From an uncultured Chloroflexia bacterium (lineage in GTDB: Bacteria; Chloroflexota; Limnocylindria; Limnocylindrales; CSP1-4): DNA of 64,000 bases. This document shows, piece after piece, positions 10,070-46,503 of this stretch. The position numbers were made by a program, and so were the translations under genes. The notes under the pieces were generated by a model, which was given only the letters and a program-made list of their open reading frames with translations, searched no databases and was not told where the DNA came from. Location: positions 18,506 to 82,505 of the forward strand of contig CAWFBR010000007.1 in assembly GCA_963814125.1 (NCBI GenBank). The letters run 5' to 3'. The first letter of the stretch is position 1. Each line of letters starts with the position of its first letter.

Positions 10070-12883
10070 ATGAGTTCCCGTAATCAACGGCCGCGGCCGG
10101 AAGGCCCGGGCGCCGCTCGCCGGAACCGTGAGCGCGCGGCGACCGATGCGATCGAAGGGCCCCAGCCCGGCTCCGACAGGCTGCAGGAGGCCTTCGTCGC
10201 CGACATGGACGACGGCGTCGCCTTCCACAGCGCGATTCGGGACGAAACCGGGCGCATCGTCGACTTTCGGGTCGAGTACGTCAACGAGGCCTTCTGTCGG
10301 ATGGTCAGACTGGCGCACGACCGGCTCGTCGGACATCGGGTCCTCGAGCTGTTCCCGACCCAGCGGGCCAAGGGAATCTTCGACATGTGCGTGCAGGTCG
10401 CCGAGACAGGCCAACCCAGCACTCGGGACTCGCTGAGGGACCAGCAGGGCCTGGGCTGGACCGACCCCGATGGCCACGCTCCGAGTGTCGACATCAGGGT
10501 CAGCAAACTCGGCGATGGCTGCGCGGTGAGAGTTCGCGACACCACAGCCCGACAACGTGCCGAGGACGAGCTGTTCGCGTCGCAGGAGATGCTGCGGTCG
10601 GTCCTCGACACCTTCCCTCAGCGCGTGTTCTGGAAGGACGAGGATTTTATCTTTGTCGGCTGCAACGCCGCCTTCGCCCGGAACGTTCACCTGGCGGATC
10701 CGTCTGAGATCGTAGGCAAGACCGACTTCGACATCCACCCGGTCGCCGACGCCGAGCTGTATCGCGCCGATGACAGGGAGATCATGCGAACTGGCACGCC
10801 GAGGATCGAGTACGAAGAGCCGATGACCCGCGCGGACGGCACGGAAGGCTGGGCGAGGACGAGCAAAGTCCCCATCAGGGACAAGGACGGCCGGGTCGTC
10901 GGCCTCCTCGGGACCTACCAGGACATCACCGACCAGAAGCGAGCGGCGGAAGCGCTCCGGGAGAGCGAGCAATTCCTGGACAGCATCATCGAGAACATCC
11001 CGGTCATGGTTTTCGTGAAGGATGCCGAGACCTTCCGTTTCGTCCGCCTCAACAAGGCCGGGGAGAGGATGCTCGGCTCCACGCGGGAGCGCCTTGTCGA
11101 TCAAGACAGCTCGGGGCTGGTGCCGCCGGATGAGGACGAGCACTTCCTCTCGTTCGATCGGCTCGTCGCCACCACCGGCCAGGTTGTGGAGATCCCGGAG
11201 GAGACCATCACCACTCCACAGCAGGGCGTAATCGTCATGCACACTATCAAGGTCCCCATCTTCGGCGACGACGGCAAACCGCGGTACGTGCTGGGGATCT
11301 CGGAGGACATCACCGCTCGCAAAGCAGCCGAACAGGGGCGCCGTGAGAGCGAAGAACGCTACCGTCACATCATCGAGTCGATCACCAACTACATAGTCAG
11401 CGTTCGGATCGAGCACGGGGTACCGGTTGGCGTCAATCACGGACAGGGCTCCGTCGCGGTCACCGGCTACACGCCCGAAGAGCTGAACGCCGATCCCGAG
11501 CTTTGGGACAGCCTGGTGGTTGCAGAGGATCGCGAACTCGTTGAGGAGAGCATGCGGCGTGTCCTGACCGGCGTGCCGATCGCGCCGGTCGAGCATCGGC
11601 TTCGCCGTAAGGACGGAGTGGTTCGCTGGGTCCGCCAGACGTTCGTACTTCGTTTCGACGCGGACGGCAGTGTGACCTCCTACGACGGACTCATCCAGGA
11701 CATAACGGAACCACGCACCCTGCAGGGCCAGCTGCTCCAGGCCCAGAAGATGGAGGGGATCGGCCGCCTGGCCGGAGGCGTGGCCCACGACTTCAACAAT
11801 CTCCTCACGGCGATCCTGGGCTATGTCGAAATGTGCCGCCAGGACCTGCCGCCAGAACTGCCGACCGACCATCCTGCCCGGCTCGACCTCCAGGAAGTGG
11901 CCGGTGCCGGAGAGCGGGCCGCCGGCCTGACCAGGCAGCTGCTGGCATTCGCCAGCCGCCAGATCGTTGCGCCCGTGCGACTGGACCTCAGCGCGTCGGT
12001 GAGCGACTCGATGAAGATGCTCCAGCGGTTGGTTGGGGACGACATCGAAATCGAGACCGCTCTCGCGTCCGACTTGCGGATCGTTTTGGCGGACCCGGGC
12101 CAGATTCAGCAGCTGCTCGTGAACCTCACCGTCAACGCCCGCGACGCGATGCCGGGCGGCGGCCGTCTGCTGATCGAAGCCGCCAACGAGCTGATCGACG
12201 CGGGATCCGCCATTGCGCATTCCGGTGCGGTGCCGGGGCCGCATGTCCTCCTGACCGTGACCGACACAGGCGAAGGGATGACCGAGGAGGTCCGCTCTCG
12301 CCTGTTCGAACCGTTCTTCACGACCAAGGAACTGGGCAAAGGGACGGGACTTGGCCTGGCGACATGCCATGGAATCGTGAGGCAACTGTCAGGCCATATC
12401 GAGGTCTACTCGGAGCCGGGCCAAGGGACGATGTTCCGAATCTACCTGCCCAGCGTCGACGGCCCGGCCGATCGTCGAGCCGATACATCGTTGGTCCCTC
12501 CGGCCTCCAACGGCACCGAGAGCGTGCTCGTCGTCGAGGATGAGCCCCGGGTCCGCCGGCTGGCAGTGCTCGGCCTGCGCGCTCGCGGGTACAGCGTTCT
12601 CGAGGCGGCCAACGGAGCCGAGGCGATCCGGGTCGCGCTTGGAGTCGGCAACACCATCGATCTGGTCGTTAGCGACGTCATGATGCCCGGCATGAGCGGC
12701 CCCGAACTCGTCCGGGAACTCTCCGCAATCGCTCCGCGGGCGCGGGCTCTGCTGATGTCCGGCCATGCGGACGCCGCACTCCTGGATGAGGTACCCGATC
12801 TTCGCCAGGCCTTCCTTCCCAAGCCGTACACGCCGGAGCGACTCGCTCGCAAGGTCCGCGAAGTCCTGGACGCGCCGGCTTAG
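10070..12883 (+). CDS. Multi-PAS hybrid sensor histidine kinase (PAS x3-4, HisKA, HATPase_c, C-terminal receiver)
   Basis: 937 aa. H-box GGVAHDFNNLLTAILGY, G-boxes (TDTGEGM, GTGLGLA) and a receiver (VLVVEDEPRVR...DLVVSDVMMPGMSG...KPY). Confidence 0.9.
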   Translation: MSSRNQRPRPEGPGAARRNRERAATDAIEGPQPGSDRLQEAFVADMDDGVAFHSAIRDETGRIVDFRVEYVNEAFCRMVRLAHDRLVGHRVLELFPTQRAKGIFDMCVQVAETGQPSTRDSLRDQQGLGWTDPDGHAPSVDIRVSKLGDGCAVRVRDTTARQRAEDELFASQEMLRSVLDTFPQRVFWKDEDFIFVGCNAAFARNVHLADPSEIVGKTDFDIHPVADAELYRADDREIMRTGTPRIEYEEPMTRADGTEGWARTSKVPIRDKDGRVVGLLGTYQDITDQKRAAEALRESEQFLDSIIENIPVMVFVKDAETFRFVRLNKAGERMLGSTRERLVDQDSSGLVPPDEDEHFLSFDRLVATTGQVVEIPEETITTPQQGVIVMHTIKVPIFGDDGKPRYVLGISEDITARKAAEQGRRESEERYRHIIESITNYIVSVRIEHGVPVGVNHGQGSVAVTGYTPEELNADPELWDSLVVAEDRELVEESMRRVLTGVPIAPVEHRLRRKDGVVRWVRQTFVLRFDADGSVTSYDGLIQDITEPRTLQGQLLQAQKMEGIGRLAGGVAHDFNNLLTAILGYVEMCRQDLPPELPTDHPARLDLQEVAGAGERAAGLTRQLLAFASRQIVAPVRLDLSASVSDSMKMLQRLVGDDIEIETALASDLRIVLADPGQIQQLLVNLTVNARDAMPGGGRLLIEAANELIDAGSAIAHSGAVPGPHVLLTVTDTGEGMTEEVRSRLFEPFFTTKELGKGTGLGLATCHGIVRQLSGHIEVYSEPGQGTMFRIYLPSVDGPADRRADTSLVPPASNGTESVLVVEDEPRVRRLAVLGLRARGYSVLEAANGAEAIRVALGVGNTIDLVVSDVMMPGMSGPELVRELSAIAPRARALLMSGHADAALLDEVPDLRQAFLPKPYTPERLARKVREVLDAPA

Positions 12884-12935
12884 GGGGTCGGGCAGCTTCC
12901 CGGGGCGCCGCGCCCCACGTCCGCTCCGAGGTCTT

Positions 12936-13451
12936 CTAGCGCCCGGTCAATTGCTCTGACGCCGCGCCTCGGGAGTCCGCGGTACGCTCCGCTAGCGTGG
13001 CGACGGGCTGGTCTTCCGGCAGAGCGCCCACGGTAAGCAGGATGTTCGCCCACCAGCGCTGATCGCCGCTGACGATGACGAGGGCCAGGTCGGTAGAGCT
13101 GGTGGCGGCGTAGAAGTCGAAGCGCGGAAGGTGTGTTACAGGGGTCTCGGGTCCGAGCATTCCCGCCACCTCGCTCTGGACGGGCGGCAGGCTGCCGTCC
13201 TCGGGCTCCATGAACGCGACGCTCTCGATCGGCAGCACGGGCATCAGCGCGGCCAGGATCTCGGTAACGCTGACGATGCCCGGGCACAAGTTCAGGTAGA
13301 CGCGGCGGGCGCGAGGGTTCGGTGCGGTCAGGCTCGGGTAGTTGCCGTCGCTGATCAGGACCAGCGAGCCGTGGCCGGCCGACCCGATGCTCTCGAGGAT
13401 CTGGGGGTGGATTAGGCTTGTTCGAAGCATCGAGCGTCCCTCCTGCGACAT
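12936..13451 (-). CDS. RbsD/FucU family sugar mutarotase (D-ribose pyranase / L-fucose mutarotase)
   Basis: MLRTSLIHPQILESIGSAGHGSLVLISDGNYP, typical of RbsD/FucU. Last gene of a 4-gene operon. Confidence 0.8.
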   Translation of the reverse strand: MSQEGRSMLRTSLIHPQILESIGSAGHGSLVLISDGNYPSLTAPNPRARRVYLNLCPGIVSVTEILAALMPVLPIESVAFMEPEDGSLPPVQSEVAGMLGPETPVTHLPRFDFYAATSSTDLALVIVSGDQRWWANILLTVGALPEDQPVATLAERTADSRGAASEQLTGR

Positions 13452-13472
13452 CCACGGGGCATAAACAGGCGT

Positions 13473-14333
13473 CTAGAAACCCCTCAATTGTGTACTGGTC
13501 CGGCGCGGCAGCCCGGGGTGGGGCCGTCGCCTGAGAACGACGTAGTCCAGGCCGCGAGCACGGCAGAAGTCGCGCTTTTCCGGCTCATCGCCATCCTCGT
13601 TGACCACGTACGTCTGCGGCGCGATCGAAGCGATCTCGGGCTCCGCGTCCATCCATCCGCTCCCGGTGGAGATGAGCGCCCGGTGGACCTGGCGGACAGC
13701 CTGGACCATATAACGCCGCTCGTCCTGGCCGTGAAACGGGTGCCCGTCGCCCTTGAGCAGGCGTACGTTTCGGTCGCTTCCAACGACCACGTACAGTTCC
13801 CCCATCGAGGCGGCCTCCCGGAAGAACTCCACATGGCCCGAGTGCAGCCAATCGAAACACCCCGTGACGATCACGCGTGGTTCTCGCGGCGAACTGACGC
13901 CGACCTCAATATGGGCGCCGGCCTCCACGGAGGCCGGGAAGATGCGCAGCTGATCGGAGCCGAGCTCTAGGTATGGAATGGCTGCCCTCTCGCAGCCACG
14001 TCGAATGGCGTCTGTGCCGGCGTCCTCTGCTGCGACGACCGCGCCGGGGCGAGCGCCCTGAACGGGCTGCGTAGCTGCCTCCAGCGACGAGACGAGACTT
14101 ACGCTTTCTACGTACCGTATGTTCTCGAGGAAGAAGCGCCGCTCAGCCTCGGGGAAGTCCGGCTTCCGGCCGGCAGTGGACTCGATCAGGTCGTCGGTCC
14201 ACAGCCTGACGTGCACCTTCCCGGAACGTGCCGCTTCTTCGAGCAGGCGCACGTCGACTGACCGGAGATCCTGGAAGCCGGCGCAGACGACCACGGGACT
14301 CCGGGCATCCAGGCTGGCTGATGGAATTGGCAT
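13473..14333 (-). CDS. Tandem cytidylyltransferase-fold (CTP_transf_like / RfaE-domain-II-like) protein; putative sugar-1-phosphate nucleotidyltransferase
   Basis: Internal ATG 1 nt after the GHMP kinase stop. Two (T/H)xGH-type nucleotidyltransferase halves (VVVCAGFQDL... and VIVTGCFDWLHSGHVEFFREAASMGELYVVVGSDRNVRLLKG). Confidence 0.7.
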   Translation of the reverse strand: MPIPSASLDARSPVVVCAGFQDLRSVDVRLLEEAARSGKVHVRLWTDDLIESTAGRKPDFPEAERRFFLENIRYVESVSLVSSLEAATQPVQGARPGAVVAAEDAGTDAIRRGCERAAIPYLELGSDQLRIFPASVEAGAHIEVGVSSPREPRVIVTGCFDWLHSGHVEFFREAASMGELYVVVGSDRNVRLLKGDGHPFHGQDERRYMVQAVRQVHRALISTGSGWMDAEPEIASIAPQTYVVNEDGDEPEKRDFCRARGLDYVVLRRRPHPGLPRRTSTQLRGF

Positions 14334-14334
14334 C

Positions 14335-15195
14335 TCAGGCTCGAACACTGACCCTAAATGACCCGGGCACATCCTCCTCCGACGCGACGACGAGGTAGCC
14401 TCCACCGCAGCCGGAGAACATCGCGCCCGGATACGCCGACTGATATGCCGTGAGTATCTTCTTCAGGTCGAGCTTGATCGTCGGGTGGGCGAGCGTGTCG
14501 GGCAGGATCTGGTCCCAGGCCGTCGAGCATTCGACCATCGAGGCGCCGAGCGCCGCGACGTCGTTGCGCACGATCGCGTCGTAGCAGTCCCAACCGCTCC
14601 GCCCCAGCCGCCGGATCCACCCCGGATCGAGCCGCCTAGTGCCGAGCGGAGCGTAGCCCGGTGGGCGGGGCCCAACGGGGATCAGATGGAGCACTCGCTC
14701 CAGCCAGCCAATGGTCGCGTGGTCCGAGGTGGACTCGATGTGGCATGGGAAGTAGCCGTCGTCTACCGCGGCGTCGTAATCGAGCCGGCTAATGCCGGGC
14801 ACGATCAGCCCAATCATGTCCTGCGAGCCGGACGGCTCGGCGAGCGTCTTGTTCTCGGCCTCGTACAACTCGCGAATGAGGTCGGCGGGATCGCCGTCCG
14901 GAAGCGTGGCGCCCCAGAGAGCTTGGGCCGCTAGCCGTGTGCCCGTCGCCATGCCGCTGCGGTCCATGAACCGGACCGTCGGTTCCAGCGAAACCACAAC
15001 CATCGAGCCGGGCGGCTCGGGGTTGCGCGACGACACGAAGGGCTGGTCGATCCAGCCTCCTGCGAGGGCGAGACGATACGGCCATCCGCCGATGACGTCA
15101 CGGAGAGTTGGGAGGTCAGGTTTCGGCCGGCGCGGGAAGGGGGACGCGCCGGCCGAAACCTGTGAGGGGTTTTGCCGGGCCGAGGGCAAGTCCAT
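14335..15195 (-). CDS. GHMP-family sugar kinase (anomeric sugar-1-kinase-like)
   Basis: 286 aa. C-terminal GAMFSGCGGGYLVVASEE GHMP motif. Sits 3 nt after the epimerase stop. Confidence 0.7.
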   Translation of the reverse strand: MDLPSARQNPSQVSAGASPFPRRPKPDLPTLRDVIGGWPYRLALAGGWIDQPFVSSRNPEPPGSMVVVSLEPTVRFMDRSGMATGTRLAAQALWGATLPDGDPADLIRELYEAENKTLAEPSGSQDMIGLIVPGISRLDYDAAVDDGYFPCHIESTSDHATIGWLERVLHLIPVGPRPPGYAPLGTRRLDPGWIRRLGRSGWDCYDAIVRNDVAALGASMVECSTAWDQILPDTLAHPTIKLDLKKILTAYQSAYPGAMFSGCGGGYLVVASEEDVPGSFRVSVRA

Positions 15196-15198
15196 CGA

Positions 15199-16257
15199 TC
15201 AGCCCACTGCCACGGTCTGCCCAGCCTTCCGCGCCGCATATTCGCCGGCGATCCACTTGTACGTGGCCGCCATGCCTTCGCGAAGCGGAGTGCGCGGTTC
15301 CCAGCCGAGGACACTCTCGATGAACGTGTTGTCGCTGTTGCGGCCTGCGACGCCCTTCGGTGCGTCGAGCTGGTAGTGACGCTCGAGTTCGATGCCGGCG
15401 ATCTCCTCGACGATCGAGACGAGTTCGTTGATCGACACCAGCTCGCTCGAGCCGAGGTTGATCGGCGTGGCGATCAGGTCCTTGGAGTGCATGATCTTGT
15501 CGATGCCGACGATGCAGTCGTCGATATAGCAGAAGCTCCGCGTTTGCGTCCCATCGCCCCAGATATCGATCTTGTGGACGCCCGAATCAAGCGCCTCGAT
15601 GACCTTCCGGCACATCGCCGCCGGAGCCTTCTCGCGGCCACCGTCCCAGGTCCCGTACGATCCATAGATGTTGTGGAACCGGGCGATGTGGGTCTCGAGA
15701 CCGCGCTCCGCCCAGTACTCCTGGCAGAACATCTCGGAGATCAGCTTCTCCCAGCCGTAGCCGCGTTCCGCCATCGCCGGGTACGCATCCGACTCCTTGA
15801 GGGCGACGACCTCCGGGCTCTTCTGCAGGTCGGTGTTGTACGCACAGGCCGAGGACGAGAAGAAGTAGCGCCTGGCGCCGGCGCGGTAGGAAGCCTCGAT
15901 CATGTTCGTATTGATGAGGACGCTCCGAAGGCATTCGACGCGGAAGCGCTCGATGAAGCCCATCCCGCCCATGTCGGCGGCGAGGTTGTACACCTCAGTC
16001 GCGCCCTCCACGGCGTGGATCGCGTTCCGCTCCTTGCTGAGGTCCATCGAGATGCATTCGACGCCCGGGACTCGCTGGTACCACTCAGGCAACGGCTTGC
16101 GATCGATCGCACGGATCCGTCGATAGCCCAGGTTGTGGAAGTAGCGAGCAAGGGAGCCGGCGATGAATCCACCGGCGCCCGAGATCACGATCAGGTCGTC
16201 GGGACTCGTGTCGCGGGCAACGTCCGCTCCGAGGATCGCGCCAGCGCCATCGCCCAT
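15199..16257 (-). CDS. NAD-dependent nucleotide-sugar epimerase/dehydratase (SDR)
   Basis: Start chosen at MGDGAG. Rossmann motif VISGAGGFIAGSL and YxxxK-type SDR body. The track ORF extends to 16434 with a non-protein-like N-terminal extension. Confidence 0.8.
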   Translation of the reverse strand: MGDGAGAILGADVARDTSPDDLIVISGAGGFIAGSLARYFHNLGYRRIRAIDRKPLPEWYQRVPGVECISMDLSKERNAIHAVEGATEVYNLAADMGGMGFIERFRVECLRSVLINTNMIEASYRAGARRYFFSSSACAYNTDLQKSPEVVALKESDAYPAMAERGYGWEKLISEMFCQEYWAERGLETHIARFHNIYGSYGTWDGGREKAPAAMCRKVIEALDSGVHKIDIWGDGTQTRSFCYIDDCIVGIDKIMHSKDLIATPINLGSSELVSINELVSIVEEIAGIELERHYQLDAPKGVAGRNSDNTFIESVLGWEPRTPLREGMAATYKWIAGEYAARKAGQTVAVG

Positions 16258-16417
16258 GTTCAGTACCGCCTTTCGTGTCGCCGTGACGCCGGCTCGCGGT
16301 CGTACCTCTCGTCCATATCCGAGGTAGGAGGTTTCGCCGGCGCGGTTCGTTATCTGCAGACGTTCCCGGCGACTTCGCGGAAGTGCGCACTCCGGGCGAC
16401 GTGCTGGTATCGTTATC

Positions 16418-16433
16418 TGTGGTAACGGTACCA
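16418..16433. promoter_or_regulatory. Putative LacI-type operator TGTGGTAACGGTACCA, with adjacent GGTATCGTTATC module
   Basis: Near-palindrome (half-sites TGGTAAC / GGTACCA). The same 16-mer recurs at 21310 and a variant at 21715. Confidence 0.45.
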
Positions 16434-16723: not shown

Positions 16724-17740
16724 ATGGCAACCATCACTGAAGTCGCACAGCGCGCGGGCGTGTCGGCCATGACCGTCTCTCGCGTCGTCAACCGATCCGG
16801 CTACGCCAGCCCCGCGACGCGGGCGAAAGTCGAGCAGGCAATTGAGCAGCTTGGGTACGTTCCGAACGCCGTTGCCCGCCAGCTGCGTTCAAAGCGGAGC
16901 CACACGATCGCCCTGGTCGTGTCGGACATCACGAACCCCTTCTTCACGACCATCGCCCGCGGCGTCGAGGATGCGGCGGCCGCGCGCGGCTACGCTGTGA
17001 TGTTCGCCAATACGGATGAGTCGGAACGCGAGGAGATCGACTACCTTCGGATGCTCGCGCAGCGCCAGATCGACGGGGTCCTTCTTGTCCCTGCCGGGAA
17101 TTCCGCGGCGCCGTTCCGACTGCTGCAGCGCCAGGGGATCCCGGTTGTTGTGATCGACCGCCGCGTGGTCGCTCGCAAGGTCGACGAGGTCCGGTGCGAC
17201 TCCGAAGCGGGTGCCTACGAGTTGGTGCGCCACCTCATCGAGCTCGGACACACCCGCATCGCGGTCATCACCGGTCGACGGAACATCTCGACGTCCACCG
17301 ACCGGGTTGTAGGGTATGAACGAGCGCTCCAAGAAGCCGGGTTGCCGGTGTTGCCTGATCTCGTGACATACGACAGCTTCAGTCTCGAGGGCGGCTACCG
17401 GCAGGTGAACCAGATCCTGGCGAACAGGCCCAGGCCGACGGCGATATTCGCGACCAACAACTTCCTCGCCTTCGGGGCGCTGCGCGCCCTGCGCGAAGCG
17501 GGCTTGCGAATACCCGATGACGTCTCGCTCGTGACCTTCGACGATCTGCCGGCCGAGTGGCACGACGATCCCTTCATCACGGTCCTGGCCCAGCCCGCCT
17601 ACGAGCTCGGGCGTCATGCAACCGAATTGCTGTTGGATCGGCTCGCTGGTGGGCCCCGGACCAAACGGCAGGTCATCGTGCTGCCCGGCGAGCTCATCAC
17701 CCGCAGATCCAGCGGCCCGCCGCCCACCTCCCCAGTCTGA
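16724..17740 (+). CDS. LacI family transcriptional regulator
   Basis: MATITEVAQRAGVSAMTVSRVVN HTH and a periplasmic-binding-protein-like effector domain. Confidence 0.9.
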   Translation: MATITEVAQRAGVSAMTVSRVVNRSGYASPATRAKVEQAIEQLGYVPNAVARQLRSKRSHTIALVVSDITNPFFTTIARGVEDAAAARGYAVMFANTDESEREEIDYLRMLAQRQIDGVLLVPAGNSAAPFRLLQRQGIPVVVIDRRVVARKVDEVRCDSEAGAYELVRHLIELGHTRIAVITGRRNISTSTDRVVGYERALQEAGLPVLPDLVTYDSFSLEGGYRQVNQILANRPRPTAIFATNNFLAFGALRALREAGLRIPDDVSLVTFDDLPAEWHDDPFITVLAQPAYELGRHATELLLDRLAGGPRTKRQVIVLPGELITRRSSGPPPTSPV

Positions 17741-17762: not shown

Positions 17763-18998
17763 TCAGAATCGACGGACGCTCGGGTCGGAACCGCGACCAT
17801 GGTCCGAAGCCACAACCTCCGGTGGTTCGACGCTGGAGAGCCGACCGAAATGCGGTTCCGATGCGAACCGTCGCCCGGAACCCGGGATGAGCAGCGCCGC
17901 CAGGAGCAACACCGAGACCGCGCCGAGCACTGCCGATATCGTGTAGAGGGCCCGGATCGAGAGAATGCCCGCCAGCTCCCCGCCGAGCCCGGCTCCGATG
18001 ATCGCAGCCAGACTGGACACCGTGGCGTACAGAAGGCCCTGAGCCGTGGCCGCAGTTCCCTGGGGCGCCTCCCGCGAGACGTAGGCGGCGCTGCCGACAA
18101 GCAGGAGGCCATAACCCAGGCCTTGCAGCAGGGAGAAGCCAACGAGCAGGTCCGGCGACGTGAATGCGGCGTTCGCGATCTGGCGGCCGACGATGATGGC
18201 CATTCCGATCACGATCAGGCGTTCAGTTCCATACCGGCGAGCCAGCAGTGGAAACAGAACCATTGCCGGCACCTCGAGCAGTGTCTGGCAGCTCCAGAGA
18301 TAGCCGACCTCGTTGCTGGAGGCCCCCTGGTTCCGCAGGTAGATCGAGATGAACGGGCTTTGCATCGACATCGCTATGAAGCCCACCAGCGCGGCCGCCA
18401 GGAAATACAGGATCGGTCGATGGGAAAGCACCACGCGCGTGGCGTTGCCCGCGCCAATGGGTCTGATGGCGCTGGATCTGGTCGGCAAGAGCAACGTCGA
18501 CAGACCCGCGAGGGCCATCGCCGGGATCATGATCCAGAACAGACCGGCGTAGTTTTGACCGATCCACCAGCCCACGAGCGGCGTAGACACCATGAAGCCG
18601 AGCGAGCCGAAGACCCGGACGCTCGCGAAACGCGACCGATCCGAGGCCGTCATGTGCAGGATCCGGACGTCGATCATCGGTTGAAGCCCCGATAGTCCGC
18701 CGGCGAACAAGCAGATGGCGGGGAGCAGCCACAGGCTGGCGCCCGATGCCCCCATTGCCAGCCCGCCGGTCGCGGTTACCAGTCCGGCCAGGACGATGAG
18801 CGTCCTCGATCCGGGGTTGCGGTCGTGGAGCAAGCCCCAGAGTGGCGCTGCGAGGAGGGCGACCAGCGACATGGATCCCGTCAGGAGGCCGATGTCGGCG
18901 AGGGTGATGCCGATGCTGTTGTAGTAGAGCTGCAGATATGGCGCGTAGGCCCCCACCCCAAACGCCATGACGAAGTAGGAGAATCGAGCTCGATTCAA
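17763..18998 (-). CDS. MFS transporter
   Basis: 411 aa with 12 predicted TM helices. MFS motif GxLxDRxG (GLLHDRNPGSR). Confidence 0.85.
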   Translation of the reverse strand: MNRARFSYFVMAFGVGAYAPYLQLYYNSIGITLADIGLLTGSMSLVALLAAPLWGLLHDRNPGSRTLIVLAGLVTATGGLAMGASGASLWLLPAICLFAGGLSGLQPMIDVRILHMTASDRSRFASVRVFGSLGFMVSTPLVGWWIGQNYAGLFWIMIPAMALAGLSTLLLPTRSSAIRPIGAGNATRVVLSHRPILYFLAAALVGFIAMSMQSPFISIYLRNQGASSNEVGYLWSCQTLLEVPAMVLFPLLARRYGTERLIVIGMAIIVGRQIANAAFTSPDLLVGFSLLQGLGYGLLLVGSAAYVSREAPQGTAATAQGLLYATVSSLAAIIGAGLGGELAGILSIRALYTISAVLGAVSVLLLAALLIPGSGRRFASEPHFGRLSSVEPPEVVASDHGRGSDPSVRRF

Positions 18999-19013: not shown

Positions 19014-21038
19014 TCACCTTGGCCGCTTCGGGAGCCAAACCCTCATGCCGAGCCCTCGGCGGTTCCCCCACGCGAAATACGGCAGGGCGCGGATTCGATC
19101 CGGATGCCGCCGGGGCGCGCCCGACGGCTCGAACTCCCCGTACGGCCAAGAATTTCCGGCCTCCGATCGGATGAGACCGTCGAACGAGAGCCAGACCATC
19201 TCGCCCAGGTCTTGTGCCTGCCTGGTTTCGATTTCGACGTTGGGGGCGTCCTCGATCTCCAGGGACTCGACCGAGGCTCCCGAGGGTAGATCGGCATCCT
19301 CGACCGCGTAGACCAGCGGCCCTCGCTCCAGAGCCACGCAACCCCGCACGGCGTCGATCCTTGGATCGGGCGCAGTTGTCCGGGGAGTCATGTCGAGCTC
19401 GAGGCGGACCAGAGCTCCCGGCTCCCAGACGCGCGTGATCTCGATCCGATCAGCTTCTCCGCTCATCACGGTTTGACCGGCGACGCTCGCCACCGCTTTC
19501 GAGCACCACGATGGCACCCGCATCGAAAGTGTCCATGGTCGATCGATGGAACTCGTCACCGTGACCTCGAAGGTGCCTTCCCAGGGATACTCCGTCCGGG
19601 CTTCAATCGCGATCCGGCCGCCGCCTGTCTCCCCTGCGAAGGTGCCTGGCAAGTACTGGTGGATCTGCATCCCAGCCTCGTCAACGGTCACGGCGAGGTC
19701 TGGCAGACTCGCCAGGAAGCGCATCAGGTTCGGGGGGCAGCAGGCGATCCTCGGCCACGAGATCCGCCTGGTGGTCGCGATGCCCTCGAGGACTTCCGGG
19801 ACCGCCGAGTGCTGCATCAGCGGGTTCGAGTAGAAGAAGTGAGCGCCGTCGGGCGCCAGTGCAGGCAGAACCGCGTTGTACGTCTGCCGCTCGATCATGT
19901 CGGCAAAACGCTCCTCGCCCGTGACCAAGAGCAACCGCCACGCCAGCATGGCGCCCCCGATCGCGGCACAGGTCTCCGTATACGCTCGATCGGGCGGAAG
20001 CTCGAAGGCGGCGCCGAACGCCTCATCCTGGTGGTGAACGCCGAGACCGCCGGTCAGGTAGGTGAAGGAGGAAACCATGGCATCCCAGCGGTGGAGCACG
20101 GAATCCAGCAGCTCGCGGTCCCCGGTCTCAACGGCCACGTCCACAACGCCGCAATCGAGGTACATCTGTCGCACGGCGTGACCGGCCGGCTCGAGCGCGC
20201 TCCGGACCGGCTCGTGGTCCTGCCAGAACCTGGCGCCGTAGCGGCAGGTACCCAGGAGACCGTGCCCGCGCCGATCGACGAGCGTCCGCGCGAAATCCAG
20301 GTAGCGTCGTTCGCCCGTCGTCCTGTATAGCTCGACCAGGGCCATCTCGAACTCGGGGTGGCCGCAGATCAGCTCTCGGCGTCCGGGGCCCATCTCAGCT
20401 TCTATGCGCGCGACGAAGCGTTCCGCGATCCGGATGAGGCGTTCGTCGCCGAGGCTTCGTTTCCAGGCTACGGCCGCCTGGACGAGATGGCCTGCCACAT
20501 AGAGTTCGTGGCCCCACTCCATGTCCTGGAATTCGCCACCCGGTTGGGCGACCTGGTAGAAGGTGTCGAGGTAGCCGTCGGGTCGCTGGGCGCGCGCGGC
20601 GCGCTCGATCATTGGCTCTGCCAGTGCGCGCAGCTCGGGACGTTCGCCCTGGGCGAGCTCCCACCCGACGGCCTCGAGCCACTTGTAAACGTCCGAGTCC
20701 AGGAACGGAGCCGGGTTACCACCGTCCCCCTCAGCGCCTCGGTAAGGGCCCTCGGCGCCGGCAGCAAGCTCGAAGTTGGTCCCGTTGCCGCAGGCCTCAA
20801 GCCTGGACGACCCGTGCGGGATCGTCCGCTCGCGGTTCGTCCGAAGCCTTTCGTACCAGAAGCCGGCGTCGACACGGGCGTTGGTCAGGCCGACGGGACG
20901 CAGCCGCAGTCGCGCAACTCCTGTCGGCAACACTGGAGCGACCGTGAGCCTGCGACCCGGACCCTCGGGCGAGCGGTCATCTTGGAGCGTGTATGCCTCT
21001 CCGGTCGTCGGCGTCCTTGTCGTCTTCGATCCGGTCAT
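19014..21038 (-). CDS. Glycoside hydrolase family 127 protein (beta-L-arabinofuranosidase-like, DUF1680)
   Basis: Start at the ATG preceded by GAGGAGG (674 aa). GH127 signatures include LDSDVYKWLEA, HxxYxxxH-like and the Cys-rich region CAAIGG...CCPPNL. Confidence 0.85.
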   Translation of the reverse strand: MTGSKTTRTPTTGEAYTLQDDRSPEGPGRRLTVAPVLPTGVARLRLRPVGLTNARVDAGFWYERLRTNRERTIPHGSSRLEACGNGTNFELAAGAEGPYRGAEGDGGNPAPFLDSDVYKWLEAVGWELAQGERPELRALAEPMIERAARAQRPDGYLDTFYQVAQPGGEFQDMEWGHELYVAGHLVQAAVAWKRSLGDERLIRIAERFVARIEAEMGPGRRELICGHPEFEMALVELYRTTGERRYLDFARTLVDRRGHGLLGTCRYGARFWQDHEPVRSALEPAGHAVRQMYLDCGVVDVAVETGDRELLDSVLHRWDAMVSSFTYLTGGLGVHHQDEAFGAAFELPPDRAYTETCAAIGGAMLAWRLLLVTGEERFADMIERQTYNAVLPALAPDGAHFFYSNPLMQHSAVPEVLEGIATTRRISWPRIACCPPNLMRFLASLPDLAVTVDEAGMQIHQYLPGTFAGETGGGRIAIEARTEYPWEGTFEVTVTSSIDRPWTLSMRVPSWCSKAVASVAGQTVMSGEADRIEITRVWEPGALVRLELDMTPRTTAPDPRIDAVRGCVALERGPLVYAVEDADLPSGASVESLEIEDAPNVEIETRQAQDLGEMVWLSFDGLIRSEAGNSWPYGEFEPSGAPRRHPDRIRALPYFAWGNRRGLGMRVWLPKRPR

Positions 21039-21309
21039 GACTGCAATCGCCTCCTCCTCATCACCGCATCGACGAGCGGCCTTCGGACGGCACGCAACTC
21101 CGGAGCGGCCAGGACCTGTCCGAATCGGCGCGAGTCCGCGACCTGCCCGATGGTTGCGGCCGCATTCTATCCAGGATTCCCTGCTCGGCAGCGGTTCTGT
21201 CGGTCGGCGCCGGCTTCGTGGGAGACAGGACACCGCCGGCGACGATGAGCTCCGTCCGGGCGGGGCCAGTTGCTGCGACGGGCGTGCCATGCACGGCAGG
21301 CGGTCTGCC

Positions 21310-21325
21310 TGTGGTAACGGTACCA
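21310..21325. promoter_or_regulatory. Putative LacI-type operator TGTGGTAACGGTACCA (identical to 16418-16433)
   Basis: Exact 16-mer repeat in the GH127 / ABC divergent intergenic region. Confidence 0.45.
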
Positions 21326-21503: not shown

Positions 21504-21533
21504 TCGCGGCTGCTAACGGTAACAGAGGTAACG
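21504..21533. promoter_or_regulatory. GGTAACAGAGGTAACGATATC module related to the site upstream of the epimerase operon
   Basis: Shares GTAACGATA(T/C)C with the reverse complement of 16406-16417. Confidence 0.3.
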
Positions 21534-21714
21534 ATATCATTTTTCCCTTGACAACGCGCGGATCGGGTCCCTACTCTGCAGGCGAAACGCCAGAAACGTT
21601 TCGCAAGCCCGGGTGATGCCTGGGCCGAACATGGCAGTCAACCTTGGTCGTGGCCCCCGCCACCGTGGGCGGGTGGCTGCGGGAACGGCCACTTTCGGGC
21701 TTCAGTCTTTGCCT

Positions 21715-21868: not shown

Positions 21869-23270
21869 ATGAAGAGAGCCCTACTTATCCTTGCGGCGGT
21901 GGTCCTGGGCGGATGTTCCAGCACCACCGCGTCAGCCGCGCCGACAGCCACGCCGGTGCCGGCCGCGACACCTGCATCAAATTCGACCTCCGCCGCTGTG
22001 GAGTCCGCTGCGGCGGCCGCCGCCAGCGCCGGCATCGAATCCGCCGAGGTCACCAACACGACCGATGCCATCACTGTCTGGATCGACCAGCCTCGCCAGC
22101 CCGTGGTTGACGGCTTCAAGGCCAAGTACCCGCAGTACGCGAGCCTGATCAACGATTCCGTTGTCGACCGCGAGACGCTGCCGGCCAAGACCCTGCTCTT
22201 CAACAACACCGGCTCCGGCTGGCCTGATGTCGTCTTCGCCGAGCCGCGACTCGTCGCCCGCGTCTCGGATGCGGCGCACGCCTTCCCGCTCGACTTGTCC
22301 ACCCTCGTTCCGGCCGACATGCTCAAGCAATACGCCGGCGCGGACAACTGCACTTTCAACGGCAAGGTCTATTGCCTCCGCAACGACCTCGCCCAGATGG
22401 TGACGTACTACAACGCACCGCTTTTCACGCAGTTCGGCTACACGGTTCCCACGACGTTCGAGGAGATGGAGGCCCTCAGCGACAAGGTCGCCAAGGACCA
22501 TCCCGGCTACTACCTCGGCACACTGGGTGACGGCTGGACCTGGCTCTCGTACATGGAGGCCAGCGGCTGCCCGTACGCCAACGTCAAGGACGTCGGAACC
22601 CTCCAGATCAACGTCAGCGATCCCGAATTGCATCCGAGGCGCGGAGCTGATGGATCACATGGTCGCTAACAAGACCCTCTGGAATACCGACTACTTCACC
22701 GCCAGCTGGGTTACGATCGCCAACAACAACAAGCTCCTGATGCTCATTGCGCCCATTTGGGCCGCACTCGGCACCTTCAAGGGCACCTACTACACCGACA
22801 AGACGACCCCCAGTCAGACCGACCACCCGCTCGGCGTCGCGCCTCCGCTCAAGTGGGCTGCGGATGCCACCGCTCAGACCGCGGCCATGGGCGGCGCGGC
22901 CTGGACCATCTCTCAGCACACCAAGAACCCGGGACTCTCGCTGCTCTTCGCCGAGTATGCGACCCAGGACCCGGACCTCTGGAAGGGCTCCTCTAACTTC
23001 CCATCCTTCACGCCGCTCCAGCCGTTGTTCAACGCGACGGTCCAGGACGACCCGATCTTCGCGAGCGACCCGACGGCCGCCTTCGCGACGGGCGCGACGG
23101 AGATCTCCGCCATCGGCGACAACTGGCCGCGCTTCGACCTGATCGCACCGCTCAACACCGTCGTCAAGGACATGTACAGCAAGAAGCAGACGATGGTGGC
23201 GACGTTGCCTGAGGTCACCTCGGTGCTCACGCCACTAGCGGAGGCTCAGGGTTACAACGTAACCCAGTAG
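21869..23270 (+). pseudogene. Sugar ABC transporter substrate-binding lipoprotein (family 1), apparently interrupted by a frameshift near 22620-22650
   Basis: The two track ORFs (21869-22669 and 22527-23270) together make one roughly 465 aa solute-binding protein. Lipobox signal MKRALLILAAVVLGGC. The frame switches within GATCCCGAATTGCATCCGAGGCGCGGAGCTG. Confidence 0.7.
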
Positions 23271-27810: not shown

Positions 27811-27887
27811 CCGGTCCTCTAGGTCGGGACTTGGCGGGCTGAGGATCGCCGGCTCCCAGGGTGTTCGGGACAAGGAGGAATGCCCAT

Positions 27888-29690
27888 ATGGCAGCCGTGA
27901 CGTCAGTGACGGGCGAGAGCAACGGAAGCCTCCCCCGGATCGGCATCAGGCCCGCGATCGACGGCCGCCGTAATGGGGTCCGCGAATCGCTCGAGGATCA
28001 GACCATGGGGCTGGCCCGAGGCGTGGCCGCGTTCCTCTCCGACAACCTCCGCCATTCCACGGGCGAGCCCGTGGAATGCGTTCTCGCCGACACGTGCATC
28101 GGCGGCGTCGCGGAAGCTGGCCGGGCAGCCGAGAAGTTCACACGGGCAGGCGTGGGTCTGACGATCACCGTCACCCCGTGCTGGTGCTACGGCTCGGAAA
28201 CGATGGACATGGACCCGTTGACACCAAAGGCCGTGTGGGGCTTCAACGGGACCGAACGGCCGGGCGCCGTGTACTTGGCCGCGGTACTCGCGGCCCATGC
28301 GCAGAAGGGCCTCCCTGCCTTCGGCATCTATGGGCGCGATGTCCAGGATGCGTCCGACGGGACGATCCCCGCCGATGTTCAAGCAAAGCTCCTCAGATTC
28401 GCCCGCGCCGGCCTCGCCGTGGCCCGCATGCGCGGCCGCTCGTACCTGTCGATCGGCGGAACATCGATGGGCATCGCCGGTTCGATCGTCGATCCCGCGT
28501 TCTTCGAAAGCTACCTGGGAATGCGCGTCGAGGCCGTCGACATGTCCGAAATCGGTCGGCGGATCGACGAGGGCATCTTCGACCCTGCAGAGTACGGACG
28601 GGCGCTGGCATGGACCCGCTCCAACTGCCCGGAGAGCGAGGATGCCAACCCGGCTTCTCGCCGGCGCAGCCGCGCGCAGAAGGATCGCGACTGGGAAACG
28701 GTCGTGAAGATGGCGATGATCGGCCGCGACCTGATGGTGGGCAATCCGGCCCTCGCCGACCTTGGGTTCGCGGAGGAAGCGCTCGGACGCAACGCGATCC
28801 TCGCCGGATTCCAGGGTCAACGGCAGTGGACCGATCATTCTCCGAACGGCGACTTCATGGAGGCGATCCTCAACTCGTCGTTCGACTGGAACGGGATCCG
28901 CGAGCCCTACCTGATGGCCACCGAGAACGACAGCCTCAACGGCGTGGCAATGCTCTTTGGGCATCTCCTCACCAACACGGCCCAGATCTTCGCCGACGTT
29001 CGAACGTACTGGAGCCCACAGGCGGTTCTGCGGACTACCGGCGTCAAGCTCACCGGGCTCGCCGAGAACGGCTTCATTCATCTCATCAACTCCGGGGCCG
29101 CCACGCTCGACGCCACCGGCCGCGAGCGCCAGGATGGACGACCCGTCATGAAGCCGTTCTGGGAGATCACCGAAGCCGAAGCCGCCGACTGTCTGCGCGC
29201 CGTTCGTTGGAGCCCGGCCGTCACCGAGTACTTCCGCGGCGGTGGCTACTCGTCCACGTTCGCGACTCCCGGCGGGATGCCGATGACCATGAGCCGGGTG
29301 AATCTCGTCCGTGGCCTGGGGCCGGTGCTCCAGATAGCCGAGGGCTGGACGGTGGACCTGCCGCGCGAGGTCCATGAGGCGATCGACAAGCGTACCGATC
29401 GCACCTGGCCGACCCACTGGTTCGTGCCGAGGACGAGCGGCAGCGGGGCGTTCCGCGACGTCTACGAGGTCATGTCGAACTGGGGCGCCAACCACGGCGC
29501 TATCGGCTTCGGGCATTTCGGCGCCGACCTGGTCTCGCTCGCCTCGATCCTGCGGATCCCCGTCGCGCTGCACAACGTCCCCGAGGAGCAGCTCTACCGG
29601 CCGAGCGCCTGGGGTGCGTTCGGGGCCATGGAGCCTCAGGGTGCGGACTATCGCGCCTGTGCCAACTTCGGCCCGCTCTATGGCCGGTAG
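27888..29690 (+). CDS. fucI: L-fucose isomerase
   Basis: RBS AAGGAGG. Near-colinear with E. coli FucI ([89 protein letters not shown]). Confidence 0.95.
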
Positions 29691-31206
29691 CGGGACAGCG
29701 GCTCGATTGGGAGTCGCGCCCCGCGCATCGTTCGCAGCCGTCGATCTCGGCGCCGACAGCGGCCGCGTGATCGAAGGCACTCTGTCCCATGACAAGCTGA
29801 CGCTCAGGAATATCCACCGCTTTCCCAACGGCCCGGTCACGTTGCCCGAGGGGCTGCGCTGGGACGTCCTGGCGCTGTGGTCGGAGATCTCGACCGGCCT
29901 GCGGCGAGCCGCCGGCCGTCGGGGCAGGGGCCGGAGTGAGTTGCGGGCCATCGCCGTCGACACCTGGGGCGTCGACTTCGCGTTGCTCGATCGGCACGGG
30001 ATGCTGCTCGGCAATCCGGCGCACTACCGTGACGAGCGCACGGACGGCATGCTCGAAGAGGCTTGCCGCCTGCTCTCAAGAGAGCGGATCTACCGGACGA
30101 CCGGGACGCAACTTCTCGAGATCAACACCCTCTACCAGCTCCTCTCGCTGGTGCGCCGACCGGGCCGGCTCGACGGCGCGAGCAGGATGCTCATGATGCC
30201 CGACCTGTTCGGCTTCTGGCTTACCGGGCGGGCCGCCACGGAGTTGTCCATTGCGACTACCACGCAGTGTCTCGATGTGGAGGGTCGAGACTGGGCGTTG
30301 CCTCTTCTCGCCGAACTCGGCATACCAACGCGGATCTTCGGCGAAATCGTTCCCGCGGGCCAGGTCCTCGGCACCGTCACGGGCTCGCTGGGACGTGAAG
30401 CCGATCTGGGACGCGTGGCTGTGGTCGCCTGCGGGTCCCACGATACGGCCTCGGCCGCCGCGGCAGTGCCTGCCACCGACCCTGACTTCGCGTGGCTCAG
30501 CTCCGGGACATGGTCGATCATGGGCATCGAGTCGACCGCTCCCATCGTCAATGAGGTGACGATGCGCCACGACCTGAGCAACGAAGCCGGCGTCGGCGGG
30601 CGGTGGCTCTTGCTGCGAACGATGCCCGGCCTGTGGCTCTTGCAGGAGTGCCGAAGAGCCTGGGCGCGCCAGGGGCAGCAGCACTCCTATGCGGACCTCA
30701 CGTGTCTGGCGGAGGAGGCATCGCCTTTCGCCTCGCTGGTCGACCCAGAGGCACCCGAGCTTCAGAAACCCGGCGACATGCCGACCTATATTCGGGAGCT
30801 ATGCCGCCTGACTGGCCAGCCCGTGCCTGAGACGACCGGCGCCGTCGTCCGCTGCGCGTTCGAGAGCCTGGCGCTTCAGTACCGGCGCGCCCTCGCCCGG
30901 CTCGAGGCTGTGGTCGGACATCGACTGAGCCGGATCCACCTCGTGGGTGGCGGCAGCCAGAGCGAGTTGCTCTGCCAGCTGACTGCGGATGCCACTGGGC
31001 GGTCGTGTCTCGCCGGCCCAATCGAGGCAACGGCAATCGGCAGCATCCTCGTGCAGGCGATCGCCGTGGGAGAACTCGGCAGCCTCGAGGAGGGTCGCGA
31101 GATCGTGAGGCGTTCGTTTCCACTTCGCAGATATGAACCCGTCATCGCATCGGAATGGGATGACTCATACGGCCGCTTTCTGGAGTTGAAACATGCCAGT
31201 CAGTGA
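29680..31206 (+). CDS. rhaB: FGGY-family rhamnulokinase-like kinase (candidate L-fuculokinase in this context)
   Basis: Start ATG overlaps the fucI stop. [51 protein letters not shown] and HLVGGG all match RhaB. Confidence 0.9.
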
Positions 31207-36131: not shown

Positions 36132-36597
36132 ACGCACCCTCTTCGTTGCCCGAGCATTCGGCGACGCCGAGCCCGCGCAACCGCACGAGGCGGACCGTAA
36201 CCCCGCCGGTCCTATCCGGAAAGGGCCGAAAGTAGCCCATTCGTACTGTGACCTACCCGATCGGCCCCACCCGCTGCCGGGCCGCCGAGCGTTCCGCTGC
36301 CGCAAGTCGACCTTCTCGATTGGCAGGCTCCGCGTCAGCGCGACCACAGCGACCTGGATGCTCCGGGCAGGCTCGCGCGCAGCCGCACTGCCGGGGGGAA
36401 CAAGCAATAGCCGCGGACCCGGTTGGACGGGACGCCGGGCTAGGATAGCTACCCAGTTCATCCTGGCTGCGGCCGGCACACCCGGATCGCCGGTTCGCTG
36501 GCTGGCCGATCAGATCGTCGAGCGGGTGCTGGCCCGCAGGGCATAGGGACGGAGATTTGAGAGACGACACGACTACGTCGTTTCCAGGGAGGAAATC

Positions 36598-46485: not shown

Positions 46486-46503
46486 CTCGGTATCCTTCTG
46501 GAC

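Follow-up and report, generated by a model that had tools for sequence, protein, structure and literature searches.

The window analyzed in this work, a stretch of 64,000 nucleotides from an uncultured Chloroflexia bacterium (contig CAWFBR010000007.1 of GenBank assembly GCA_963814125.1), contains at 12936-16257 four co-directional minus-strand open reading frames (ORFs) forming an operon that probably encodes an inducible, GDP-linked Leloir-like pathway for the catabolism of L-galactose, in which we infer what the substrates are, which nucleotide is used and which way the flux runs. The predicted products are a GDP-mannose 3,5-epimerase (hereafter GME), a minimal protein with the fold of GHMP kinases, a tandem protein with the fold of cytidylyltransferases (CTs), and a FucU-type mutarotase. 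The observations that carry this reading are the family and fold identities of these proteins, the synteny of their genes across genomes, a shared operator motif, and the alternation of the CT-fold gene with a gene for an Fkp-type pyrophosphorylase. We rate the system as a Leloir/Fkp-like pathway built partly from non-homologous, uncharacterized enzymes. The genes of the operon are as follows:

15199-16257, minus strand: GME-type short-chain dehydrogenase/reductase (SDR), 352 aa, first gene of the operon
14335-15195, minus strand: GHMP-like gene, 286 aa
13473-14333, minus strand: tandem CT-fold gene, 286 aa (310 aa in the longest ORF)
12936-13430, minus strand: FucU-type mutarotase, 164 aa when started at ATG 13430 (longest ORF 12936-13451, 171 aa), last gene of the operon

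An earlier, sequence-only reading of this DNA had described four tightly packed minus-strand genes separated by 1-3 nt. The ORF list bears out the arrangement, and the short gaps hold for the GME/GHMP (3 nt) and GHMP/CT (1 nt) junctions but not for the CT/FucU junction. The latter gap measures 21 nt from the longest FucU ORF and is more likely 42 nt, since the downstream start is favored both by an AGGAGG ribosome-binding site that precedes ATG 13430 by 8 nt and by a Pfam match starting at residue 8 of the longer ORF.

In the proposed pathway, retaining alpha-L-glycosidases, such as those of glycoside hydrolase family 29 (GH29), would free alpha-L-galactose, and the FucU-type mutarotase would provide the beta-anomer. 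Retaining GH29 enzymes free the alpha-anomer and fucokinases use the beta-anomer, which would explain the presence of a mutarotase. The GHMP-fold protein would then phosphorylate C1 at the expense of ATP, in the manner of the fucokinase domain of Fkp, and the resulting beta-L-galactose-1-phosphate (beta-L-Gal-1-P) would be converted with GTP to GDP-beta-L-galactose and pyrophosphate (PPi) by the CT-fold protein, in which an active HxGH domain and its degenerate partner would form a built-in pseudo-dimer. GME would operate in the thermodynamically favored direction, from GDP-L-galactose to GDP-D-mannose; the published equilibrium of the enzyme, 80:15:5, lies toward GDP-mannose (PMC6678494). Finally, ManC, phosphomannomutase (PMM) and phosphomannose isomerase (PMI) would lead through mannose-1-phosphate and mannose-6-phosphate to fructose-6-phosphate with the return of GTP, the reverse ManC reaction consuming the PPi from the guanylyltransferase step as it regenerates this nucleotide. 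The latter three enzymes are encoded alongside the module in some related operons and would be encoded elsewhere in the genome from which the window derives. The net balance would be L-galactose + ATP -> fructose-6-phosphate + ADP. The scheme resembles the Leloir pathway (GalM-GalK-GalT/GalU-GalE, including the Isselbacher variant) in its mutarotase, anomeric kinase, NDP-sugar, SDR epimerase, return of a hexose-1-phosphate and recycling of the nucleotide. It would differ in the use of GDP rather than UDP, in a 3,5-epimerization from the L to the D series rather than a 4-epimerization, in a CT-fold enzyme and ManC taking the place of the HIT-family uridylyltransferase, and in an end product of mannose-1-phosphate rather than glucose-1-phosphate.

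The product of the first gene, described in the sequence-only reading as an SDR epimerase/dehydratase, does belong to this family (Pfam Epimerase, E 1.9e-32) and is, by every sequence criterion tried, specifically a GDP-mannose 3,5-epimerase (EC 5.1.3.18) rather than a generic epimerase/dehydratase. Its best PDB matches by phmmer are the plant GMEs 8sg0 (E 4e-79) and 2c59 (E 1e-78), the next family following at 2e-26, and pairwise alignment with the Arabidopsis GME gives 44% identity. The residues defining GDP-mannose 3,5-epimerases (GM35E) are the S143/Y174/K178 triad and the C145/K217 acid/base pair, together with R306, R243 and N203 (PMC8787198). All eight (S143, C145, Y174, K178, N203, K217, R243 and R306 in the Arabidopsis numbering) are kept in the protein from the window. 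The numbering of the Arabidopsis sequence in this alignment agrees with the published residue numbers.

The assignment of the second gene to the GHMP kinases is upheld by the predicted fold and by two motifs but not by any family model. The protein has no match in Pfam or NCBIfam, including GHMP_kinases_N/C and Fucokinase, and a Pfam search at E <= 10 with 32 family members returned a single GHMP_kinases_C match (E 0.026). Searches of the PDB by phmmer and by profile gave only motif-level matches to Fkp (E 0.2-1; best profile E 0.21), the profile match to the fucokinase domain consisting of two short stretches, YRLALAGGWIDQP versus VRIDMAGGWTDTP and SGCGGGYL versus GAGGGGYL. Motif I (AGGWIDQP) aligns with AGGWTDTP of Fkp, and motifs I and III (SGCGGGY) are invariant across the family alignment; a candidate motif II, R-x-G-M-A-T-G-T-R, is conserved but atypical and precedes a predicted helix. 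An AlphaFold model based on 32 homologs (pLDDT 71, pTM 0.72, N-terminus poorly modeled) retrieved 71 Foldseek matches from the PDB at E <= 1e-3, every one a member of the GHMP superfamily (probability 1.0, TM score about 0.5), in the order HddA 3k85, WcbL 4usk, the fucokinase part of Fkp (9iip) and galactokinases (E 1.6e-7 to 1e-4), with MDD also among the leaders. Because neither Pfam nor NCBIfam detects the family, the GHMP call is based on this predicted fold and on motifs I and III; according to the model, the protein is, at the fold level, a divergent and minimal member of the GHMP superfamily and a putative kinase. It is predicted to be an L-galactose (or L-fucose) 1-kinase. The family comprises more than 7000 homologs, which are 59-79% identical across phyla and carry only the name 'hypothetical protein'.

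The third gene had been read as encoding two CT-like halves, each with an HxGH motif. The two halves are indeed homologous to each other (27% identity, E 2e-7), but HxGH, as LHSGH, occurs in the C-terminal half only and is aligned there with LRSVD of the N-terminal half:

13959-14300, minus strand: degenerate N-terminal CT-like half, approximately residues 12-125, with LRSVD where HxGH is expected
13476-13886, minus strand: predicted catalytic C-terminal CT half, approximately residues 150-286, with HSGH and RTSTxLRGF

Across 33 homologs, the HSGH motif of the C-terminal half and the terminal RTSTxLRGF are invariant, and the N-terminal half never carries HxGH; residues G158, D161, H164, G166, H167, R278, S280 and T281 are invariant in the family alignment. 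PF01467 covers residues 179-244 alone of the 310-aa ORF (E 7.7e-11). The NCBIfam matches, to rfaE_dom_II, a TagD-type model and a generic CT model, likewise fall on the C-terminal half alone, with all equivalog scores far under the cut-offs: rfaE_dom_II gave 61.5 bits (E 7e-17) against 181.5, and HldE gave 44.3 against 521 (TIGR02199, NF008454). With the AlphaFold model (pLDDT 87), the top Foldseek match over both domains is human ECT/Pcyt2 (4xsv, TM score 0.74), and single-domain matches include HldC 5xf2 (31% identity), TagD and the CyTase domain of Fom1; the N-terminal half also has a weak PDB match to the latter domain (5x3d, E 0.002). The model, the Foldseek matches and the alignment of the halves agree that the N-terminal half keeps the CT fold. 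By these sequence comparisons the protein is an internal duplication of PF01467 type with one catalytic and one degenerate domain. In the databases the family bears only the name 'adenylyltransferase/cytidyltransferase family protein'; we predict that its member in this operon is a beta-L-Gal-1-P guanylyltransferase.

The last gene encodes, as had been proposed, a member of the RbsD/FucU family, and sequence comparison places it with the FucU type. It matches PF05025 (E 2.4e-24, 86.8 bits against a cut-off of 25), and it misses the NCBIfam equivalog cut-offs for both L-fucose mutarotase (28.8 against 141) and D-ribose pyranase (21.2 against 93). The closest solved structures are the FucU/FucM mutarotases 4a34, 2wcv and 2wcu, and RbsD is absent among the PDB matches at E <= 0.01. 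Downstream of this gene, the 52-bp gap that separates it from a convergent gene for a PAS/histidine-kinase hybrid (10070-12883) contains a perfect GC-rich hairpin, GGGGCGC-G-GCGCCCC (12902-12916), which has no T-run and was not flagged in the terminator scan.

The strongest available evidence for pairing a guanylyltransferase with a matching anomeric kinase in this operon is the alternation of the CT-fold gene with an Fkp-type pyrophosphorylase gene. In a Bryobacterales genome (locus L065), the gene that follows GME-GHMP and replaces the CT-fold gene encodes a 541-aa protein with a Fucose_pyrophosphorylase domain (PF07959, E 6e-57). A scan of metagenomes with this protein yielded 52 loci, the majority of them from samples of peat and bog, in which tblastn revealed the recurrent operon GME-GHMP-FucU-(GH29)-pyrophosphorylase-(ManC)-LacI. 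A GHMP-like gene lies upstream of the pyrophosphorylase gene in 22 of them (its product being 59-66% identical to that of the window), GME is associated in at least 26, and FucU, in the loci with flanking sequence, usually directly follows the GHMP gene. No CT-fold match was obtained by tblastn in any of the 52 loci; in turn, all CT-bearing genome loci lack a PF07959-type pyrophosphorylase, and the window contains neither a PF07959 match nor a tblastn match to the L065 protein. Two non-homologous nucleotidyltransferases thus alternate in one conserved operon. In three metagenome loci (L109, L112 and L118), a more divergent GME gene (product 55-60% identical to that of the window) directly adjoins the pyrophosphorylase gene with no GHMP-like gene between them, an arrangement that may be a third form of the operon.

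Fkp uses GTP and accepts L-fucose and D-arabinose as well as L-galactose, with a preference for L-fucose (Km of 34 uM versus 3.3 mM for L-galactose) (PMC11982464). Because of the alternation with an Fkp-type pyrophosphorylase, the CT-fold protein would be an L-fucose- or L-galactose-1-phosphate guanylyltransferase and the GHMP-like protein the matching anomeric kinase. This supports the order of functions suggested by the sequence-only reading (mutarotase, anomeric GHMP kinase, sugar-1-phosphate nucleotidyltransferase, NDP-sugar enzyme), and also its view that a CT-fold enzyme stands in for the canonical pyrophosphorylase, a PF07959 gene being present instead in the 52 metagenome loci and one genome locus, none of which has the CT-fold gene. 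The operon would share with Fkp of Bacteroides, and with eukaryotic fucose salvage employing FucM, mutarotation to the beta-anomer, a GHMP-fold anomeric kinase and guanylyl transfer to an L-galacto sugar; Fkp, moreover, accepts L-galactose, and the sister form of the operon has a stand-alone Fkp-type pyrophosphorylase. Unlike in Fkp, the kinase is here a separate protein of approximately 260 residues that sequence searches do not place in the Pfam GHMP or fucokinase families, a non-homologous tandem CT-fold protein takes the place of the pyrophosphorylase, and the product would go to GME in an inducible operon of catabolic type rather than to fucosyltransferases.

The conservation of the module was assessed across genomes. 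A pattern scan of contigs representing one genome per species showed that at least 585 genomes carry the GHMP-like gene, and synteny was counted by tblastn on 81 genome loci, the related loci being the best 80 from the genome scan. These span at least seven phyla (Chloroflexota, Verrucomicrobiota, Planctomycetota, Acidobacteriota, Armatimonadota, Lentisphaerota and Latescibacteria), and the closest relative, an uncultured Chloroflexia metagenome-assembled genome (MAG; locus L005), has a GME that is 91% identical. A search of gene neighborhoods, which the sequence-only reading had recommended, found the order GME-GHMP-CT in most of the 81 loci: in 64 of 76 loci the gene directly upstream of GHMP is GME, which lies within 3.5 kb in 5 more, and the CT-fold gene lies directly downstream of it in 58 of 73. 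This arrangement is far beyond chance. In a Latescibacteria chromosome (L084), the module is typical except that a gene for a C-5 cytosine DNA methylase (10817-11953) separates the GHMP-like gene from the CT-fold gene.

In the 48 loci whose flanks extend for 5 kb or more in both directions, regulators of the LacI or AraC type occur within 6 kb in 32, FucU in 14, a ManC-type mannose-1-phosphate guanylyltransferase in 13, GH29 in 7, fucI in 6, PMI in 4 and PMM in 1. In a Pfam census of the two genes flanking the module on either side, 267 ORFs in total, the commonest entries are LacI and AraC regulators, periplasmic sugar-binding proteins, ManC, FucU, GH29, transporters of the major facilitator superfamily (MFS) and fucI; ribose-type ATP-binding cassette (ABC) importers and a GH95-like gene are also frequent neighbors. 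Glycosyltransferase, flippase and polymerase families are absent from the 25 commonest neighbor families on either side, the commonest neighbors do not include GmhA- or GmhB-type families, and lipid or teichoic-acid genes do not appear in the census. Several related operons combine the module with ManC and further enzymes:

L024: LacI-GME-GHMP-CT-FucU-ManC
L079: LacI-GME-GHMP-CT-ManC-PMM
L030: FucU, then GME-GHMP-CT-PMI-ManC, with PMI between CT and ManC
L027: LacI-ABC importer-FucU-GME-GHMP-CT-ManC
L034: GH29-GME-GHMP-CT-ManC-aldo-keto reductase

In L024, L027, L030, L074 and L079, the Leloir-type set (anomeric kinase, NDP-sugar-forming enzyme, epimerase and hexose-1-phosphate-returning enzyme) is complete; judged from predicted gene functions, related operons thus possess the gene set of a Leloir-type catabolic pathway along with a regulator and an operator.

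Two additional features were observed next to the module. An aldo-keto reductase gene adjoins it in three loci, L001 (6707-7693), L002 and L034 (12750-13754), of which L001 and L002 are near-identical contigs. The L-galactose dehydrogenase of plants belongs to the aldo-keto reductase family, and an oxidative branch of L-galactose metabolism may co-occur with the module in these loci. In two Verrucomicrobiota loci (L021, 4999-7932; L082, 1629-4481), a large protein with DUF5703_N and Laminin_G_3 domains and a weak match to the GH95 catalytic domain is encoded just upstream of the module; GH95 includes both alpha-L-fucosidases and alpha-L-galactosidases.

The regulation of the operon was addressed through its upstream region. 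By a custom palindrome scan combined with cross-locus comparison, a 14-bp palindrome, TGGTANCGNTACCA, was found upstream of GME; a generic inverted-repeat finder reported nothing in the GME-LacI intergenic region. The predicted sites in the window are as follows:

16405-16433: predicted LacI-type operators in tandem, 148-176 bp upstream of the start of GME, comprising TGGTATCGTTATCT and, as a perfect palindrome, TGGTAACGGTACCA
21312-21325: second perfect copy of the predicted operator, upstream of the GH127-MFS unit
21511-21539: operator-like pair, again spaced by 15 bp and with 2 mismatches in each copy, upstream of the plus-strand block of ABC, GH65 and fucI-fucK-fucA genes

The tandem site consists of the perfect copy (16420-16433) and a copy with 2 mismatches (16405-16418) at a spacing of 15 bp. 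When up to 2 mismatches are allowed, TGGTANCGNTACCA is matched 6 times in the window, where 0.75 matches are expected, and none of 100 shuffles reached 6. Related loci have the palindrome at orthologous positions too, and perfect copies adjoin LacI or GME in 17 of them, including loci from Anaerolineae, Armatimonadota and Acidobacteriota. The distribution of these sites suggests that one LacI regulon joins the GME operon with the GH127-MFS and ABC/GH65/fucIKA units, all of which would be controlled by a LacI repressor binding to TGGTANCGNTACCA. The operon appearing to be part of a LacI-controlled regulon for sugar utilization, catabolism would fit it better than constitutive glycan biosynthesis.

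The remaining genes of the putative regulon surround the operon and include the fucI, GH127 and GH65 genes that the sequence-only reading had reported nearby and the Pfam scan recovered:

16724-17740, plus strand: divergent LacI-family regulator (ORF from 16634, probable start at ATG 16724) with Pfam LacI HTH and Peripla_BP_1/3 matches
17763-18998: MFS transporter (Pfam scan)
19014-21290, minus strand: GH127 (Pfam scan, longest ORF)
27861-29690, plus strand: fucI, L-fucose isomerase
29374-31206, plus strand: FGGY kinase, fuculokinase-like (fucK)
31193-32017, plus strand: class II aldolase (fucA)

In the plus-strand block, two ABC permeases and GH65 precede fucI-fucK-fucA, and by sequence the canonical L-fucose route is complete within the window. 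In the longest GH127 ORF, the initial stretch of some 85 codons is rich in Arg and Pro and non-coding in appearance, and the Pfam domain begins at residue 139; translation probably starts near 21038 (MTGSKTT...). The overlapping plus-strand ORFs 21869-22669, which has a lipoprotein signal (MKRALLILAAVVLGGCSS), and 22527-23270, neither of them with a Pfam match, look like the halves of one solute-binding protein split by a frameshift or an assembly error. Elsewhere in the window, an 869-aa protein (33870-36479, minus strand) combines two CBM96-matching stretches with a calcineurin-like metallophosphoesterase domain, and a WYL-domain/HTH regulator (46462-47454, plus strand) is followed by two ORFs, 47211-48734 and 48731-50083, both without a Pfam match. 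A scan for sigma-70 promoters and terminators gave nothing exceeding background.

The direction of the pathway and the identity of its sugar are the points at which other explanations compete. The sequence-only reading had assigned the operon to salvage and activation. In a route of this kind, the cell would turn L-fucose or L-galactose taken up from outside into GDP-L-fucose or GDP-L-galactose as donors for its own glycans, in the manner of Fkp in Bacteroides, with GME, ManC and PMI supplying or balancing the GDP-L-galactose pool from fructose-6-phosphate. The enzyme set is a split equivalent of Fkp; ManC, PMM, PMI and GME jointly make up the known biosynthetic route to GDP-L-galactose; and bacterial GM35E is regarded in the literature as a biosynthetic enzyme, the roles named in reviews being confined to lipopolysaccharide and antibiotics (PMC6678494, PMC8787198). 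We nevertheless regard this explanation as unlikely, as glycosyltransferase, flippase and polymerase families are missing from the top 25 families of the 267 flanking genes, and the operon is tied instead to LacI/AraC regulators, a conserved operator, importers and exo-glycosidases such as GH29, a context that points to catabolism. The characterized biosynthetic enzyme MfGM35E of Methylacidiphilum lies in a different setting, among glycosyltransferase and methyltransferase genes. It and the plant GMEs resemble the epimerase of the window in sequence (44-50% identity, all catalytic and diphosphate-binding residues kept) but act biosynthetically, in ascorbate and cell-wall synthesis in plants and, as proposed, in lipopolysaccharide or antibiotic synthesis in bacteria, whereas the context of the present operon would imply the reverse, catabolic direction.

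As for the sugar, the sequence-only reading had proposed a 6-deoxy sugar or a pentose, possibly L-fucose, which now appears unlikely given the substrate pair of GME (GDP-L-galactose/GDP-D-mannose), the ManC, PMI and PMM genes of related operons and the fucIKA genes of the window. As PMM and PMI depend on a hydroxyl at C6, the carbon passed on by the pathway would be neither L-fucose nor D-arabinose, and D-arabinose, although accepted by Fkp, was rejected as a substrate on this ground. In a more specific version, L-fucose would be the true substrate and the GME homolog would turn GDP-L-fucose by 3,5-epimerization into GDP-6-deoxy-D-mannose (GDP-D-rhamnose) or similar 6-deoxy sugars. Formally, such a reaction is possible, FucU, GH29 and fucI are frequent neighbors, and L-fucose is the sugar preferred by Fkp-type enzymes (PMC11982464); even so, we hold this version to be improbable. 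PMI and PMM of the operons require not only the hydroxyl but also the phosphate at C6, the epimerase keeps all GM35E-defining residues and its 44-50% identity is to enzymes acting on GDP-mannose and GDP-L-galactose, and L-fucose is made a less likely substrate by the window's own fucI-fucK-fucA route, which is present in related Chloroflexia loci too. We also know of no onward pathway for D-rhamnose-1-phosphate.

Two further explanations concern the nucleotidyltransferase. That the CT-fold protein has a substrate other than a sugar-1-phosphate, perhaps cytidylylating glycerol-3-phosphate, phosphoethanolamine or a phosphonate, its linkage to the kinase and GME arising through another shared product, would accord with ethanolamine-phosphate cytidylyltransferase being its best full-length structural match, with the matches to TagD and the Fom1 CyTase domain, and with the fact that no GTP-dependent member of the fold is known to us. 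ECT/Pcyt2 shares the tandem architecture of two CT domains, but the human enzyme has HxGH in both halves (HYGH and HIGH), uses phosphoethanolamine and CTP, and is only 19% identical overall. The gene is, moreover, translationally coupled to the kinase gene through 1-nt or overlapping junctions and adjoins it in the majority of loci, its place is taken in other loci by an Fkp-type L-fucose/L-galactose-1-phosphate guanylyltransferase, and the neighborhood census lacks lipid and teichoic-acid genes; we therefore judge this explanation very improbable. The heptose alternative, in which the GHMP-like and CT-fold proteins would be of the HddA and HldC/RfaE-domain-II types and make an NDP-heptose, draws on the top Foldseek matches of the GHMP model (HddA 3k85 and WcbL), on rfaE_dom_II as the best NCBIfam match of the CT half and on the structural match to HldC. 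The HldC/RfaE domain II clade (D-glycero-beta-D-manno-heptose-1-phosphate adenylyltransferase) is, to our knowledge, the only characterized CT-fold clade acting on a beta-sugar-1-phosphate, and the CT-fold protein shares with it the HxGH and SDxxVxxLKGxxxP-type motifs. HldC is, however, single-domain or fused to a ribokinase-like kinase, ATP-dependent and found in a heptose context, whereas the protein from the window consists of two repeats in tandem, the N-terminal one dead, and is predicted to use GTP. The scores for rfaE_dom_II and HldE, given above, are far under the family cut-offs, the GHMP-like protein has no NCBIfam match, the constant partner of the module is GME, the CT slot alternates with a fucose-1-phosphate guanylyltransferase, and heptose-pathway families of the GmhA, GmhB and HldD kinds are missing from the most frequent neighbors. 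The HddA/HldC reading, which the sequence-only reading had named in its HddA/HddC-like form as the outcome that would overturn its own proposal, was accordingly rejected on family cut-offs and context and is hardly credible.

Some points weigh against the L-galactose pathway itself. All 80 related genome loci come from MAGs, and in approximately 13 of 73 loci (about one in six) no nucleotidyltransferase adjoins the kinase gene. The GHMP assignment stands on a medium-confidence model (pLDDT 71, TM score about 0.5) and short motifs, of which motif II (SGMATGT) is atypical. We know of no GTP-using sugar-1-phosphate transferase with the CT fold, the known members using CTP or ATP, and the substrates and nucleotide of the GHMP-like and tandem CT families are deduced solely from context. 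ManC, PMM and PMI also serve the biosynthesis of GDP-mannose and are hence neutral as to direction, GH29 and FucU would suit L-fucose equally well, and L-galactose is a rare sugar for so widespread a module. Finally, searches of the window found no gene for ManC, PMM, PMI or GH29, which counts against the pathway, and none for AraC or a ribose-type binding protein.

L-Galactose occurs in rhamnogalacturonan II of plants, red-algal galactans and other glycans. Its release is within the known range of GH29, which includes a characterized exo-alpha-L-galactosidase (PMC12316285). The known bacterial catabolism of this sugar is oxidative, proceeding through L-galactose dehydrogenase to L-galactonate and D-tagaturonate in Luteolibacter LG18, and a Bacteroides vulgatus route is cited in the same 2025 paper on L-galactose catabolism, in which GDP is never mentioned (PMC12632266). 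The oxidative route has the same proposed substrate as the present operon but involves no sugar-1-phosphate or GDP-sugar step and no homologous enzymes, save possibly the aldo-keto reductase of L001 and L034. In the open-access full-text literature, we found no bacterial L-galactokinase, GDP-L-galactose pyrophosphorylase or GDP-linked L-galactose catabolism, nor the four-gene module.

If the proposal is correct, bacteria would possess, beside the oxidative route, a second and energetically economical route for L-galactose. We see about equal weight for and against the broader claim that this is a widespread GDP-dependent, Leloir-type pathway from L-galactose to fructose-6-phosphate, which uses a single 3,5-epimerase and two new enzyme families and makes catabolism a major role of bacterial GME. 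The two families would be a minimal GHMP-fold L-galactokinase, undetected by the profile libraries now available, and, we believe, the first GTP-dependent CT-fold sugar-1-phosphate nucleotidyltransferase, a tandem pseudo-dimer in which one domain is dead. Many bacterial GDP-mannose 3,5-epimerases would then have to be reassigned from biosynthesis to catabolism, and functions would be provided for two orphan families that are frequent in polysaccharide degraders of soil, peat and freshwater (more than 7000 GHMP-like proteins and up to approximately 4000 CT-fold matches, other CT-family proteins included). The kinase and the CT-fold transferase would also offer compact catalysts for producing GDP-L-galactose, and possibly GDP-L-fucose, both of them expensive donors in glycoengineering, from the free sugars.

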